From a virus (taxonomy: Duplodnaviria; Caudoviricetes): a stretch of 64,000 nt of DNA. The stretch spans positions 160,001-224,000 of IMG/VR virus record IMGVR_UViG_3300046522_000316. One strand, given 5' to 3'. Position numbers and translations under genes: made by a program. The notes beneath the pieces were generated by a model that ran no database searches, was not told the origin of the DNA, and worked only from the letters and a program-made list of their open reading frames with translations. Shown here piece after piece: positions 4,999-63,386 of the stretch; the first letter of the stretch is position 1, and the number at the start of each line of letters is the position of its first letter.

Positions 4999-5055
4999 AA
5001 CAACTCCTTTAAAAAGGCATTAATTGCCTGTTGTGCGTAATTTACTTATATACAT

Positions 5056-5065
5056 TATTTACAGT
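5056..5065 (-). promoter_or_regulatory. Candidate phage promoter motif ACTGTAAATA upstream of thyA
   Basis: Exact 10-mer also at 50826, 52703 and 63556; 58 nt upstream of the thyA ATG, in the AT-rich divergent gap. Confidence 0.6.
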
Positions 5066-5090
5066 ATTCCATGCACTGGGGGAACCACAC

Positions 5091-5384
5091 ATGGGCCAAC
5101 CTAACGTTCGTATCAATACTGACCTTTCCAGCGGTCACGGCTGCTGGCCTCCTACGTTGCCGATTCAGGCGTCAATGAACGTCTTCTGCAATGGGCTGGC
5201 TGAAGTGCGCGTAGGCGATGCGTACATGGTTCACCTTTGCCCCGGTAAAGGCGCACACCAAGGCAAGGCATTAACCGGCGCCACAAAAACATTCACCAAC
5301 GGCAAATTGGTTCACACCGTGGGCGGCGCTATTGATTGCGGCGACTTCGCGCAGAACGGTAGCCCTAACGTTTTCTCGGGATAA
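5091..5384 (+). CDS. PAAR-repeat spike tip protein (T4 gp5.4-like)
   Basis: SGHGCWPPT...VFCNG...RVGDAY..H-C...H.G...G..K.F.NGK....VG..IDCG....GSPNVF pattern; ATG at 5091. Confidence 0.92.
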   Translation: MGQPNVRINTDLSSGHGCWPPTLPIQASMNVFCNGLAEVRVGDAYMVHLCPGKGAHQGKALTGATKTFTNGKLVHTVGGAIDCGDFAQNGSPNVFSG

Positions 5385-5387
5385 ATC

Positions 5388-5774
5388 ATGGTTGATAAAA
5401 CATATCGGTTCTCGGACGTAAGTCTGTACGCCGAACAAATGCAAAACGCTTTGGTATTTGACGAAGATTCCGTCAACCAAAACATCCTGATGATTCTGGC
5501 TACACCGATTCGCAGCGCATGGTTTAACCCGTCGATTGGTTGCTTGATTCCTGAATACCTTTTTGATCCGGTGGACGAATTCACCGCTGACAAAATCAAA
5601 GACGAAATCATTAGCGTATTGCCGCGCAATTTTGAAACCCGTGTGATTGTTACCGGGTGCATTGTTGTGCCGATGCCTGATGATGGGCTGTTCTACGTCA
5701 CCATCCAATACGATGCGCCCGACCTGAACAAAACCAAAATCGTTTTCAACTTTAACTTGGGCCGGACATTATGA
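5388..5774 (+). CDS. Baseplate wedge protein, gp25-like
   Basis: SVNQNILMILATP...FNPSIGCLIPEYLFDP...ETRV pattern, expected size, position next to PAAR. Confidence 0.88.
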   Translation: MVDKTYRFSDVSLYAEQMQNALVFDEDSVNQNILMILATPIRSAWFNPSIGCLIPEYLFDPVDEFTADKIKDEIISVLPRNFETRVIVTGCIVVPMPDDGLFYVTIQYDAPDLNKTKIVFNFNLGRTL

Positions 5775-18175: not shown

Positions 18176-19201
18176 ATGACAGGATTAACAAGAATCCCGA
18201 CGTACATGATTCGTGCGAAGGGCGAGAAAGATTCCAGTATTCTCGAAGTAAAAAACGAAAGGCTTTCGGCAACTGCGCCATCCGATGCAGACGTAACAGA
18301 AATCGAATCCGCGATTTACGATGAAACTCAGGGCACGCTTACTTTTCGTTTTTATAACGGACAGGAAATGCGTGTTCCGGGTTTCCCGGTTCCTTCGAAA
18401 ATTCCAGCTGGCCCAACAGGCCCGCAGGGACTCGCAGGCATTGACGGAAAGAACGGAAAAGATGGGCGCGATGGTGCAGTGGGCAGCGCAGGTTGTGCAG
18501 GGCCTCAAGGTGTAATTGGTCAAACGGGGCCAAAAGGTGAAACCGGTCGTACTGGTCAACCCGGCCCCGCTGGCCCAACTGGCCCGCAAGGCCCACAGGG
18601 ATTGCAAGGCCCATTAGGCCCCACCGGCCCGCAAGGCCCACAGGGGCCACAAGGCCCACGCGGTGAACAAGGCCCGCAAGGTCGCCCCGGCCCGAAAGGC
18701 CCTGAAGGTTTTATGCACATTGTGGTTTCTACCGCAGAACCGGAAGAAAAAGATCGCGTCGATGGTTTGTTGTGGGTGAATCCTGCAATTGATTATTTGT
18801 GCGGTGTTTATAATCCTCCGGTTTGTCCGGAACCAGAACCGTGCCCGCCGCTCGCATTTAAAGAGCAAACTTTCCAACTGAATGCGACTGTCGGAAAATC
18901 CAGCAACGTGCATTATCTCGGCCCGAATCCCGGTGTTGTGAAAATCACGTATGCAACTGCAAACGCAGATGCGCCGGGTGATCCAGCTGGTGGTTATGTT
19001 GGCAATCGGATTGATGTTCGCCATCGCGGAATCGTGGTCGCAACGAACGGTGCAAACGAAATTGTTTTCCGCAATACTCCGAAAACTTTCGAGTTTGCCT
19101 ACGAGCCGTCGAACGGTAACGAATTCATCACGGTGGAAATGTCGCACAGCGATTCGAATTCCGATTGGTGGTCGTACAAAATCAGCGGCCCTACTTTGTA
19201 A
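18176..19201 (+). CDS. Collagen-like fibre protein 2 with C-terminal beta domain
   Basis: GXY run, LWVNP junction motif, and one copy of the repeat domain found in 15669 and 19832. Confidence 0.85.
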
Positions 19202-19219
19202 AAATATTCAGGGTGATTT

Positions 19220-19735
19220 ATGACCGAGCTTACGCGGATGCCCGTTTCGATGTTGCACGCCCGTGGAAAAACTGGCGGCAATCTCAAAAACACGGGCACG
19301 AAAGTTCAAGTCGCAACAGAAGCTGAAAATGCGGTTCCTTCCCTTGTGGCGGGTACGCTGAATCAGAACGGTTTGTTGCGCTTGAGAATGTCGGACGGAA
19401 CCTACGTCGAAGTTGATGGTTTTTATACAGCGAATTCAATCATTCAAGGCCCTGCTGGCCCGCGTGGTTTCGGTGGTGAAAACGGTCGTGACGGAACGAA
19501 CGGACGCGATGGGGAACAAGGCGCAACAGGTTGCCAAGGGCCAGCTGGCCCACGCGGTGATACTGGCCCGGAAGGCCCACGCGGCCCACAAGGTATTCAA
19601 GGCCCACCGGGGCCGAAAGGTGAACCGGGGCCACGTGGTTCTGACGGTTTTGTTCAGGTGTTTATCCAATCCGCCGATCCATCGGCAATGGAAGGTACGA
19701 CTGTGAAAGCTGGCGCACTTTGGGTGAAACCTTAA
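19220..19735 (+). CDS. Collagen-like fibre protein 3 (short stalk)
   Basis: GXY run; ends in GALWVKP. Confidence 0.85.
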
Positions 19736-23430: not shown

Positions 23431-25467
<2,037 letters not shown>

Positions 25468-56825: not shown

Positions 56826-57929
56826 TTATTCGGCGGTGGCGAGTTGCGGCAAACGCTTGTACAGGAAAGCCAGCAGGTTATCTTCGTGGGATTCGTCACG
56901 TGGAATCGTGAGGCCGTTATTGGTTTCCGTGTTGCGCCGTTCCATCCAGTACGTGACGGTTACGCCAGCATAAAATGCCATCGAAACATACGTGTCTTTC
57001 GGATCTTTATTGTCCGGCCACAGGAAAGCCACAATGCCCTCATGATCGAGCGTTACTTCCGGCGACGGCAAACCGTGTTCTTTCAACGTGGCGAAAAATT
57101 CACCTGCGTTGTTCAGACTGGCAGCAATCGGTTTTTCTTCACCGTCGCCTCCCCAGTTGAATTCGAGTTCGGCGTAAGTGTTTAGGGATTGTTCGGCCAC
57201 GGCGTAAAGCGCATTCGCTTTTTGCCGGGCTTCCTCTTCCTCCTTTTCGATTTCATTCAAAACCGCAACTTGTTCGTCGGTGTACGGCGGAATAACGCAC
57301 TCGGAATCTTCGCCAATTTCTTTGCGGTCGATACGCCCTTGCACCTGTTCGTAATCGGGTTCCGACCACGCCGGGGCGTCAGGATCGTTTGCTTCGGCTT
57401 GTTCCTGCGCGTGCATTTCTTCGTACATCGCTTTATCAGGATGTGGCAGACCGGCGACCACCATTTCCATGCACTGCGGGCAATGGTACATACCCATCGG
57501 CGCACCACACCACATTTCCGGATGTTCGATGCATTCGCCGTTGTTTTTGTACACACGGAAAATAACGGTGCGGATGTTGCCGGTTTCTTCGTTTTTCAGC
57601 ACGCGGAACGCAGTGTGAAATTCTTCCCAGTCGTATTTGAGCGCGTGCGTAAAAGCACCGATCAATTTCATCTGGTCTTCTTGTACGAGATTGCTACCCG
57701 CCAGTCCGAAAACGAAAGTCAGGCACTGCGTGGTTGCTTCGCCTTTTCCTTCGATGAAATAGTTCACGCCGTCTTTGTAGCGGAAGGGCACGATGCTGGC
57801 TGGCCCTGCGATGGAATCGAAAGAAATGCCCAGTTCTTTACCGTCGAACGGCGGCAGTTCCACATCCCACAAAACGTCACGCTGTGTGCCGTTGAAAACT
57901 ACGACGACTTCACCTTTAACCCACGACAT
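56826..57929 (-). CDS. Multidomain hypothetical protein with a CxxC Zn-finger-like segment and an acidic C-terminus
   Basis: CIEHPEMWCGAPMGMYHCPQC. Confidence 0.7.
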   Translation of the reverse strand: MSWVKGEVVVVFNGTQRDVLWDVELPPFDGKELGISFDSIAGPASIVPFRYKDGVNYFIEGKGEATTQCLTFVFGLAGSNLVQEDQMKLIGAFTHALKYDWEEFHTAFRVLKNEETGNIRTVIFRVYKNNGECIEHPEMWCGAPMGMYHCPQCMEMVVAGLPHPDKAMYEEMHAQEQAEANDPDAPAWSEPDYEQVQGRIDRKEIGEDSECVIPPYTDEQVAVLNEIEKEEEEARQKANALYAVAEQSLNTYAELEFNWGGDGEEKPIAASLNNAGEFFATLKEHGLPSPEVTLDHEGIVAFLWPDNKDPKDTYVSMAFYAGVTVTYWMERRNTETNNGLTIPRDESHEDNLLAFLYKRLPQLATAE

Positions 57930-58314
57930 AAAACACCTCAGTAAATGATTGAATTGTTCGTGCGATCAAAGCCTGCACAATCGAATCGTCAGACTGGTAC
58001 GGGCCACACGGATCATGCCAAACGTCAGGCAACGAATAATCGCCGTCGTAGTTTGGTTCGAGCCACAGCAGGCCCTCTTCTTCCCGGTGGCCTTGTGGGC
58101 AGCAGCTGATAACGCATTCGCGCATTTCCACACCGTACAGGCGCATCAACTGGTGTTCGCTAATGTAATGCTGCTGGCCGTCGTTTTTGCTGATCACATA
58201 ATTGGGAACGATCAGGAAATGTTTTTCATTCCGTGAACGGTTTACCCTGCGTAGCATTTCGTCGATTACTTCCTGTTGATGCGGCGGAAGGTCAACGCCT
58301 TTGTATTTGGTCAT
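57916..58314 (-). CDS. Hypothetical protein (132 aa; start revised to MTKYKG)
   Basis: ATGA overlap with the Arc gene stop. Confidence 0.65.
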   Translation of the reverse strand: MTKYKGVDLPPHQQEVIDEMLRRVNRSRNEKHFLIVPNYVISKNDGQQHYISEHQLMRLYGVEMRECVISCCPQGHREEEGLLWLEPNYDGDYSLPDVWHDPCGPYQSDDSIVQALIARTIQSFTEVFYVVG

Positions 58315-58973
58315 GGTTTCGGTGCTTCCAGATCCGTCGCCAAAACTTCTACGCAACCGCCGCCTTGCATTTCCACACGGGCCATAGTTCTTTGCTGTGT
58401 GAGACTCCCACCAATCCACATGTGGCGCACGATGCCGTTACGCCGTGCAGTGCTGACGTAAACCGGCATGCCTTCCTGCGCGATAAATTGCCGCTTCGGT
58501 GGCAAATAATCAGGGCCGTAGGGTTTCGGCAACGTCTTGATCAACGCTTCCAGTTTTTCGAAGGTCGTACTGTTGTGTTCGGAAACATCAGCAGCCTTGA
58601 GTCCCTGCACGTTTACCGGTTTAGCCATAGCCAGAACTTCTTTGATTTCTTCTTCGAATTTCTCGCCGTTGACATGCTGTTCAAATTCGACCGCGCTGTA
58701 GTGCCAGCTACCGGCTTCGAGCAAACGCAAAAACAGCGCACGCATCACCCGGTTCTGTGCTTCCAGTTCGGCGGAGCTACGCAGCGAATCCAGACTCGGA
58801 ATGACGCCGGTTTGTTTGTGGATTTCCAACATCATTTCGATCCACGAAACGATTTCGCTGTTCATGCTGCGATGCTGGCTGTCTGCGATGGATTTGATTT
58901 CTTCGCGCATGCCGTCCAAAAGACGCAACACGAATTTATCTGCGGTACGGCTGCTGTATGTTTTTGCACTCAC
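58311..58973 (-). CDS. Arc/ribbon-helix-helix transcription factor, AmrZ-like N-terminus with an unrelated C-terminal region
   Basis: [33 protein letters not shown]. Confidence 0.88.
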   Translation of the reverse strand: [220 protein letters not shown]

Positions 58974-59752
58974 GATACTTTCCCCACCAAAGCCATTGCC
59001 AGCTGATCGTTCAGCGATGGCTTATTGCGCAAATTGATTTTGAAATATTTGCGAGTCAATTGCTCAAGGCTCGCCAGTTCCCGCGCCACCGGATCACTCG
59101 AAGTTTGTTGCACGATGCATTCCACTTCTTTGATGGTGGTGATTCCGTATTTGAAAATGTACGGCAGGAAAAGTTTGTACGGGCCGAAGGTGCAAATCGC
59201 TTTCTTGCAAACGGTGCCGGGCACACGTTTTTCCGGCCACGTTTCTTGCAGAACTTTGATCACATCGTCAACGGTTTTTACCTGCTTGTATTCGTGCAGA
59301 TAATCCATTTCGATTACGCCTTCGTCTTCATAGTGCAAACTGAACAGACGATCACCGTTCAACTTCAGCGAAAACGCAGCAGTCCACGGGCTGTCGAAGA
59401 AACGCTTTTTGACAGGGCGGCGATTTTTACGCGGGGGCATCTTTGAGGGCTGCACCGTGTGTACGCCCATTTCGTACAAACGAATTTCAATGGCTTCACA
59501 CAGCGCACCAAACGCAGCAATATCTGCTTTGATTTTATCTGCGTAGGTCAGAACCTGTTTAAGGATTGTGGTGTCCATTGTGCGCGACGTGTACGTGTGT
59601 TCTTTGTCGTTGCATACGACACGCACCCGGCCATCGAAAGTCAGCAACGACACGTCGATGTGATGGAACGCCAAACGATCCCCACGCTGGCGGTGAAAGC
59701 CATACTCAAGCAACTGCGCGATCAGACCGGCGCGTTTTTCTTCCTGACTCAT
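58970..59752 (-). CDS. Hypothetical protein, paralog of 59749
   Basis: VKTVDDVIKVLQ and KAICTF...FLPYIFKYGITTI shared with 59749. Confidence 0.7.
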   Translation of the reverse strand: MSQEEKRAGLIAQLLEYGFHRQRGDRLAFHHIDVSLLTFDGRVRVVCNDKEHTYTSRTMDTTILKQVLTYADKIKADIAAFGALCEAIEIRLYEMGVHTVQPSKMPPRKNRRPVKKRFFDSPWTAAFSLKLNGDRLFSLHYEDEGVIEMDYLHEYKQVKTVDDVIKVLQETWPEKRVPGTVCKKAICTFGPYKLFLPYIFKYGITTIKEVECIVQQTSSDPVARELASLEQLTRKYFKINLRNKPSLNDQLAMALVGKVS

Positions 59753-60597
59753 GCAAACTCCCCTGTACCCGCCATTTTCAATTCAGCAGTTTTCTTTTTG
59801 ATGTATTCGAAGAATTCTTCGGTGGTGATTGCACGACGCAGCTTGATTTCCGTGTAATGCATCGGTTCCGGATAATCCTTCACCAGTTCGTTCAGGTCGG
59901 CGTTTTCCGTCGAGAACCGTTGCACGTTTGCCACGCGGTCGATAACGCTGGTCACGCCATGGGTGAACATGAACGGCACGAAATCTTCGTGAGATTTGAA
60001 CGTGATAATGGATTTGCCTTTGAACACAATGCGTTCGTCGTTGCTCGGCCAGAACTGGTGCGACCGCGAACCTTGCAGAATTTTGATTACTTCGTCAGCG
60101 GTTTCTACGTCGTAATCTTCGAACTGGAGGTTCAACGAGGTTTTGTTTGCTGCCCCGGCATACGCCAGATAAAACAGCGGCTCGGCCTTGTATGCATTCG
60201 TGTAGAAATTGCAGACGTGCGTATCAACTTCGTCGCGTTTCCAGAAACCGATTACGCCGAGTTGTTTTGCACGCGCCAACACATCAGCACGCAGACTGTC
60301 GTAGGCCACCACGGACGCAGCACGCAGCGCCATTTCTTGTTCGATATAGGCCACAATTTCTTCAGCTGGCGTTTCTTGTGGCACCATCGAAAAGTTTTTG
60401 TAAGTGACGATATCAACCGTGATTTCATCGGCTGCAATTCGCACGCATGCGTTGTCGTCGTTTTTCACTTCGTAAAGCATGTCGTCATCGTCAGACCATT
60501 CGGCGCGGACGAACTTGTTTTTCTTCAGGCACGCAGTGAGTGCAGGACGACGGAGGGGTTTCAATTTCTTAGCCATTTTTCTTGCACTCACTTGCAC
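59749..60597 (-). CDS. Hypothetical protein, paralog of 58970
   Basis: VETADEVIKILQ and KSIITF...FVPFMFTHGVTSV. Confidence 0.7.
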   Translation of the reverse strand: MQVSARKMAKKLKPLRRPALTACLKKNKFVRAEWSDDDDMLYEVKNDDNACVRIAADEITVDIVTYKNFSMVPQETPAEEIVAYIEQEMALRAASVVAYDSLRADVLARAKQLGVIGFWKRDEVDTHVCNFYTNAYKAEPLFYLAYAGAANKTSLNLQFEDYDVETADEVIKILQGSRSHQFWPSNDERIVFKGKSIITFKSHEDFVPFMFTHGVTSVIDRVANVQRFSTENADLNELVKDYPEPMHYTEIKLRRAITTEEFFEYIKKKTAELKMAGTGEFA

Positions 60598-62840: not shown

Positions 62841-63293
62841 TTACACGGCTTTCGCTTTTTTGATTTTAGGCAACGGTGCCTGCGTGTCGCTGATCCGGGT
62901 GTACAAATTCCCCTTGGCCGTGCGCTCACAAATAAATTCGTTGTGGTCGCGTACCCACTGCGCAAACGCAGAATGCCAAGCACTGGAAATTTTCAGGGAC
63001 GATAGGCCTTTGTGCGAATGCAGACGGATCATCAAATCGTACAGGTTAAACCGTATACCGATTTTCAGTTTGCGTGCATAAGGAACCAGCGCATCCCACG
63101 TCAAGCTGGCAGTATCAACCGGCTGGCGTTCCTCTTCGCAACAAACGTTCAGGTGCTGTTGCAAAATGCATTCAACGACCTGTTCCAAAGAACGCCCGGA
63201 ACTTTCCGCACATTCGTGAAGCGAACGTACCACACGCGGATCAAGATCCAACGACAGATTTACCGACGTTAATTCCATTTCTTGCCCACTCAT
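62841..63293 (-). CDS. Second ribbon-helix-helix-like DNA-binding protein
   Basis: VNLSLDLDPRVVRSLHECAESSGRSLEQVVECILQQHL. Confidence 0.65.
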   Translation of the reverse strand: MSGQEMELTSVNLSLDLDPRVVRSLHECAESSGRSLEQVVECILQQHLNVCCEEERQPVDTASLTWDALVPYARKLKIGIRFNLYDLMIRLHSHKGLSSLKISSAWHSAFAQWVRDHNEFICERTAKGNLYTRISDTQAPLPKIKKAKAV

Positions 63294-63386
63294 TTTTATT
63301 GCCCCGTTTTTACAGCTGATCCCACTGTGCAAACAGCCGATCCATTTCACCGTTGTGGTTGCCCATGGGCACAGCGGCGCGTTGTT

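Follow-up and report, generated by a model that had tools for sequence, protein, structure and literature searches.

The gene at 58311..58973 (minus strand) of the window, by which we mean the whole 64-kb stretch of phage DNA that was analyzed, encodes a protein that begins with an Arc domain resembling that of the Pseudomonas regulator AmrZ, and thereby raises the question whether a phage uses this protein to act on the targets of a host master regulator, or whether the resemblance has another origin. In Pseudomonas, AmrZ governs motility, exopolysaccharides, c-di-GMP and the expression of CRISPR-Cas; these traits plausibly shape phage adsorption, and they include one immune system. The original prediction had read the gene as an AmrZ mimic. 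Its product, here called P0001, is 220 aa long and is read from a GTG start to a TGA stop at 58311-58313; the N-terminus that had been quoted for it is exactly the translation of this open reading frame (ORF), and the AmrZ string given beside it is the one printed in the alignment with the AmrZ structure 3QOQ.

Judged by sequence, the window stems from a Lu11/HRDY3-like Pseudomonas jumbo phage of about 314 kb. A protein identical to P0001 is carried by a metagenomic contig of 314,289 bp, and a large structural protein encoded in the window has counterparts in Pseudomonas phage HRDY3 (313.7 kb; 79% identity) and in the P. putida phage Lu11 (69% identity); these relatives back the Pseudomonas host that had been proposed. 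A near-identity DNA search with the 57-61 kb region of the window against 50,697 phage records returned no match. At the protein level, P0001 has a close family of 18 full-length homologs (45-100% identical, the longest of their contigs measuring 316 kb) and about 8 further distant homologs, including one in HRDY3, a cultured relative with the gene, where XDJ14992 is a full-length ortholog that is 34% identical and lies in the same gene order. The search for a P0001 homolog in Lu11 gave no match. Additional proteins of about 200 aa with the same three-part architecture (an Arc-type head, a middle module and a C-terminal barrel) were found by a profile search with residues 50-220. The neighborhoods of two distant orthologs are alike, each consisting of an HD/phosphodiesterase-like gene, two paralogs of about 270 aa, the Arc gene, a small gene and a gene of about 320-360 aa, and one of the two adds a lipoprotein-sized gene and a glutathionylspermidine-synthase-like ligase. 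Considering the 18-member family, the synteny with HRDY3 and these shared neighborhoods, we regard the P0001 gene as a stable component of the jumbo phage lineage.

Within the window, the GTG of the gene overlaps the stop codon of the gene upstream (GTGA) and its TGA overlaps the ATG of the gene downstream (ATGA), and the gene is thus coupled translationally to both of its neighbors. Directly upstream lie two tandem paralogous genes of 260 and 282 aa (58970..60597, minus strand), the nearer of which is the one coupled to the Arc gene; located at 58970-59752 and 59749-60597 (both minus strand), they are alike with a BLASTP E-value of 4e-10 over about 84 aa, and a similar pair of 275 and 271 aa is found upstream of a distant P0001 ortholog. 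The coupled downstream gene (57916..58314, minus strand; 132 aa from the ATG at 58314) matches phrog_7644 (E 4e-17), and a downstream gene at 56826-57929 (minus strand) matches phrog_34602 (E 2e-18). Elsewhere in the same array, a 169-aa ORF at 62841-63350 (minus strand) has a weak match, under the 27-bit cut-off, to the FitA-like ribbon-helix-helix (RHH) family PF22513 (residues 35-66, E 2.9e-4, 21.2 bits), and may encode a second RHH protein.

The head of P0001 comprises residues 1-50 (58824..58973, minus strand) and consists of an N-terminal loop (T5-D12), a reading strand (K13/V15/R17) and a helix-2 N-cap (H34-I41). Pfam Arc (PF03869) is the single Pfam domain in P0001, covering residues 8-46 with 50.4 bits against a curated cut-off of 20.4 (E 2e-13), which assigns the protein to the Arc/MetJ ribbon-helix-helix superfamily, and it is the only Arc domain in the whole window. 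The PHROG matches of P0001 are Arc-like regulator families, and AmrZ (3QOQ) is its sole sequence match in the PDB (E 5.3e-13, residues 3-49). The match to AmrZ at roughly three quarters of N-terminal positions, as originally claimed, amounts to 28 of 37 identical residues (76%) in the quoted stretch; over a fixed 45-residue core, 29 positions are identical (64%). The shared N-terminal arm and K-x-V-x-R strand could likewise be confirmed: AmrZ residues 10-22 and P0001 residues 5-17 are identical at 12 of 13 positions, with K18/V20/R22 corresponding to K13/V15/R17 and the inward-facing pair V21/L16 as the sole difference. In AmrZ, two GGC half-sites are read from the beta-sheet by K18, V20 and R22; an ordered loop of residues 10-17, propped by Y11, brings S13 and R14 into the groove, and R28 and N43 support DNA binding (Pryor et al., PMC3325190). 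All eight of these contacts (Y11/S13/R14/K18/V20/R22/R28/N43) are identical in P0001 (Y6/S8/R9/K13/V15/R17/R23/N38), and the eight counterparts are invariant across the 18-member close family. On this alignment, residues 1-50 are an Arc/RHH domain that keeps every reported AmrZ DNA contact, and the head belongs to the AmrZ-type subfamily rather than being a generic Arc domain. The proline of the AmrZ R-L-P motif is replaced by an invariant leucine in the P0001 subclade and is retained in the HRDY3 ortholog. Outside the family, the matches examined among those listed in a word-seeded homology search were mostly AmrZ-type proteins, many of them starting with M-R-P-L-K-Q-A, and a genome scan gave matches in Pseudomonadaceae only, at 50-69% identity. 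A distant syntenic ortholog (P0128; L072 6001-6585) has K-F-N-V-R, not K-F-V-x-R, and lacks the Y-S-S-R-T-A-D arm; since its reading residues are changed, the DNA-reading head is not fixed within the lineage, and the change possibly tracks a different host.

For the relation between this head and host AmrZ, we compared P0001 with the AmrZ-type proteins of five Pseudomonadaceae genomes, each of which has 1-5 Arc-domain genes, taking the best-scoring one (108-114 aa) as the amrZ ortholog. P0001 is identical to these orthologs at 27-30 of the 45 core positions and to the closer plasmid and prophage paralogs at 24-29, and the orthologs themselves match P. aeruginosa AmrZ at 37-43. Other phage copies are nearer to AmrZ than P0001 is, with 35/45 for Noxifer and PaBG and 34/45 for phi3. 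In a maximum-likelihood tree on 60 alignment columns, the jumbo phage family, including HRDY3, forms one clade with support of 95/96, while the AmrZ orthologs, the plasmid and prophage paralogs and the other phage copies form a polytomy, and the phage family is not nested among the AmrZ orthologs. The K-F-V-L-R variant of the reading strand is common to P0001 and the plasmid and prophage paralogs and is not found in the AmrZ orthologs. Nothing points to a recent acquisition of the P0001 gene from host amrZ, and in this tree the phage family is a separate, older clade that meets the orthologs and the plasmid and prophage paralogs in the polytomy. The mimic proposal stands in part, the AmrZ-specific head and its contacts being kept. 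The caution that came with it, about a motif common to mobile Arc proteins in Pseudomonas, was correct. One apparent phage homolog, in Pseudomonas phage Y12 (OQ572413), was dropped, being identical to P. aeruginosa AmrZ and coming from an UNVERIFIED record without annotation. The identity of this Y12 stretch (L066, 1428-1800) spans the roughly 63 residues compared; either host DNA entered the assembly, or the phage may have acquired the stretch very recently.

That phage AmrZ homologs act on AmrZ targets is already known. Borges et al. (bioRxiv 10.1101/673095) described 14 Pseudomonas phages and plasmids with AmrZ homologs whose DNA-contact residues are conserved; 5 of 6 tested phage or plasmid homologs complemented a delta-amrZ strain, and the PaBG, phi3 and JBD68 copies acted as repressors of type I-F CRISPR-Cas. 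More recently (2026, PMC13650114), Gp53, a 126-aa RHH protein of the 94-kb P. aeruginosa phage PhiPA1019, was reported to bind the fleQ, pslA, amrZ and ftsZ promoters, for which it needs R15, R21, M35 and N36. These residues align with R17, R23, M37 and N38 of P0001. Given the work of Borges et al. and that on Gp53, we consider the idea of a phage AmrZ mimic established, and both studies make it more likely that P0001 is able to bind at sites of the AmrZ type. The PaBG, phi3 and JBD68 proteins share with P0001 a phage-borne AmrZ-type head with conserved contacts, and PaBG and Noxifer are also jumbo phages. Unlike P0001, the mobile homologs are 81-146 aa long and match AmrZ at 34-35 of 45 positions; P0001 is more diverged and has two extra domains, and the functionally tested phage homologs are 76-78% identical to AmrZ, compared with 64% for P0001. 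SM1 gp115, which we presume to be the Gp53 equivalent from its 126-aa length and its similar genome of about 93 kb, is less similar to AmrZ (25/45) than P0001 is; Gp53 and SM1 gp115 resemble P0001 in being phage RHH proteins with an AmrZ-like head, but have 21/45 identity to P0001, a short unrelated tail and, as the source of Gp53, a 94-kb non-jumbo phage.

Chromosomal AmrZ itself (AlgZ; PA3385, 3QOQ) has in common with P0001 the Arc/RHH fold, the R28/N43 equivalents and the H-R-S-M-N-S-E-I helix cap. It differs in being 108 aa long, in having nine rather than five residues before the loop, and in the R-L-P proline, and P0001 is phage-encoded. A more distant comparison is with Arc and Mnt of P22, the founders of PF03869, which belong to the same superfamily, read DNA with the beta-sheet, bind cooperatively as a dimer of dimers and regulate phage operators. 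P22 Arc is 53 aa long, tetramerizes through the RHH domain itself, and has a different reading head that serves phage operators only.

The larger difference between P0001 and AmrZ lies in the remainder of the protein. As had been predicted, the C-terminus is unrelated to the AmrZ oligomerization domain: residues 48-220 gave no BLASTP alignment with it at E ≤ 100, and P0001 lacks the homologous C-terminal tetramerization domain expected of an AmrZ ortholog. An Atlas feature search with residues 50-220 returned no usable match. The head is followed by a conserved linker (residues 51-65; 58779..58823, minus strand), in which T55, G56, P59, L61 and R65 do not vary among the close homologs, and by a helix-loop-helix module of about 55 aa (residues 66-124; 58602..58778, minus strand), whose conservation is second only to that of the head and whose consensus is L-x-K-L-L-x-x-G-x-W/F-x-S-A-I-E-x-D...D-G-E-x-L-x-x-E-I. 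A search for a Pfam family covering the module found none, and tblastn of the module alone against phages gave no match. A profile search against 1.8 billion representatives resulted in 35 matches, including proteins of about 60-160 aa that match the module alone. Some of these small proteins (P0135-P0159) hardly exceed the module, and several have it after coiled-coil-like or other sequence; P0142, one of those that match the module alone, belongs to phrog_1273 and is related over its full length to proteins in 63 records of Vibrio and Pseudoalteromonas phages (including H30-H44).

The AlphaFold2 model of the module consists of a helix, a long loop and a helix (pLDDT 85). No structural relative was found: the best VIA-align Z was 5.5, and the Atlas rows were all weak. 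An EF-hand reading, suggested by the best PDB sequence match (calsensin, a non-significant E of 0.048), was rejected on account of a loop spacing unlike the canonical 12-residue pattern. Modeled as a homodimer, the module scored 0.44, compared with 0.02 for the best control; this score is the model's own confidence, from an alignment built in this analysis, rather than a measurement. Of 30 proteins solved as homodimers, 20 reached this mark, as did 1 of 23 that were solved as single chains. Three homodimer runs had at least 25% of contacts in common, with a partner pLDDT of at least 57, and the predicted dimer is symmetric, with helix 1 and the loop segment S-A-V-E-F making the contact. The module is thus predicted to homodimerize. 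The AmrZ tail is required for tetramerization and function, according to Xu et al. as they are cited in PMC13650114, and since AmrZ needs its tail to tetramerize, a self-pairing module would be a sensible functional replacement. Beyond the module, residues 125-160 (58494..58601, minus strand) form a variable linker with indels in the family alignment and low model confidence (pLDDT < 50).

The protein ends in a predicted SH3-like beta-barrel of the Tudor/KOW/chromo type (residues 161-220; 58314..58493, minus strand; AlphaFold2 pLDDT 76-87), which in the model has the five strands of this small barrel fold. In VIA-align, the SMN Tudor domain (4qq6) scored highest (Z 8.3, rmsd 1.8 Å over 52 residues), with NusG/Spt5 KOW, UvrD C-terminal domain, CarD, chromo and HspQ-type barrels scoring close to it and many Tudor/KOW/chromo entries at Z 6.5-8. 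Considering that these scores are near the search background, we claim the fold only. Matches to AFDB clusters were weak, the top ones being YccV/HspQ-type 'hemimethylated DNA-binding' barrels at E about 1e-3, and were taken at fold level; Pfam had no match to the barrel. A Foldseek search of the full P0001 model against the PDB gave nothing at E ≤ 0.001. Outside the barrel the full model is poor (pLDDT 59), which is due in part to the inability of RHH domains to fold as single chains.

Bringing these domains together, our preferred reading, to which we assign about an even chance, is that P0001 is a mobile AmrZ-type RHH transcription factor of a Lu11/HRDY3-like jumbo phage that acts at host AmrZ-type sites. 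Two chains would form an RHH dimer whose two-stranded sheet reads GGC-type half-sites through K13/V15/R17, as in AmrZ. The helix-loop-helix module would pair with itself, standing in for the AmrZ tetramerization domain, and would link RHH dimers so that they bind paired half-sites cooperatively. In the infected cell, P0001 would then occupy AmrZ-type sites of the host, at promoters for motility, exopolysaccharide, c-di-GMP and, where present, CRISPR-Cas, and reprogram the host as the shorter phage AmrZ homologs do; it may bind phage DNA too. The barrel would serve as an added effector or partner-binding domain. Going by the characterized homologs, binding of P0001 to host AmrZ sites is plausible. 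Weighing against this reading are the separate clade of the phage family, an identity to AmrZ below that of the functionally tested phage homologs, the leucine in place of the R-L-P proline, the altered head of P0128, and the lack of enrichment of the amrZ1-type palindrome in the window, although the last point has no bearing on host sites. A bolder version, which we think improbable as a whole, holds that the AmrZ-type head brings P0001 to host promoters, where the barrel makes contact with host machinery, for example RNA polymerase, like the barrels of CarD, UvrD and NusG, turning AmrZ sites into phage-controlled on/off switches, and that the module is a hitherto undescribed self-pairing element reused in small proteins by unrelated phages of Vibrio and Pseudoalteromonas.

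The main competitor is that P0001 mainly regulates phage genes, as an autorepressor or temporal switch of the minus-strand array, with a head that goes back to shared mobile-Arc ancestry rather than mimicry. This is a possible, somewhat unlikely account. The translational coupling of the gene within a long conserved phage array fits it, as do the old monophyletic clade, which is not nested among AmrZ orthologs, the K-F-V-L-R variant shared with plasmid and prophage paralogs, the changed reading residues of P0128, and the role of the classical Arc and Mnt proteins at phage operators. We searched the window for operators; this search covers one fifth of the genome, uses a weak motif and bears on phage DNA rather than on host sites. 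The amrZ1-type palindrome GGC-N5-GCC was not enriched in the 64 kb (20 sites, compared with 18.4 ± 4.1 expected, in agreement with a separate simulation), and neither was the A/T-GCC-A/T ChIP motif (W-rich-GCC-W-rich). An excess of GGC-N7-GCC (32 compared with 18) was rejected as a sign of operators, as it derives mainly from collagen-like Gly-Pro-X repeats in structural genes; runs of a GGCCCN-type 9-nt repeat at 18410-19590 and 23779-24095 (plus strand) encode collagen-like Gly-Pro-X in large ORFs, presumably of fiber proteins. A scan for promoters and terminators near the gene gave nothing exceeding shuffled sequences, and the gene lies inside a tightly packed array that has no intergenic region or operator-like repeat adjoining it. 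With neither motif enrichment nor an adjoining intergenic region or repeat, there is no positive evidence for phage operators in the window, which counts against a phage-internal role, and so does the behavior of the precedents: every tested phage protein with an AmrZ-type head acted on host promoters. Elsewhere in the window, a perfect 13-bp palindrome, GGCATTAATTGCC (5016-5028), preceded by an A/T run and located in a stretch without long ORFs (about 4999-5692), might serve as an operator or belong to a terminator.

The dominant negative envisaged in the original prediction, in which mixed RHH dimers or oligomers with host AmrZ would inactivate AmrZ, draws on the 64% identity of the RHH cores, in which hydrophobic positions are mostly conserved, and on the fact that RHH domains are obligate intertwined dimers. 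However, P0001 keeps the full DNA-reading surface, a feature that would be superfluous in a pure poison subunit, and mixed tetramers via the AmrZ tail are not expected, since the C-terminal regions of the two proteins are unrelated; we consider this mode of action very unlikely. Scarcely any credence is given to P0001 as a DNA-organizing or partition-type RHH protein (ParG/CopG-like), or as a barrel adaptor tethering a host protein to DNA, in either case with no promoter-specific role. The two domains that P0001 has besides the RHH would suit such a function, and two PHROGs labeled as partition proteins (2685 and 795) match the head and part of the next helix. Their 'partition protein ATPase' labels are probably misapplied, because the match is to the Arc domain and no ATPase is present. 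No ParA-like gene was found among the eight neighboring ORFs scanned, and lytic jumbo phages are not known to require partition.

What is new is the three-domain architecture conserved across a jumbo phage lineage, together with a module that is predicted to pair with itself. A whole lineage of phages of about 300 kb keeps the AmrZ-type head, while two other domains take the place of the assembly domain. Should this head still locate AmrZ sites, the family would be an experiment of nature on how a master regulator of the host can be rewired. In addition, the family offers a way to study a domain found repeatedly in small proteins, some of which at least are phage-encoded.
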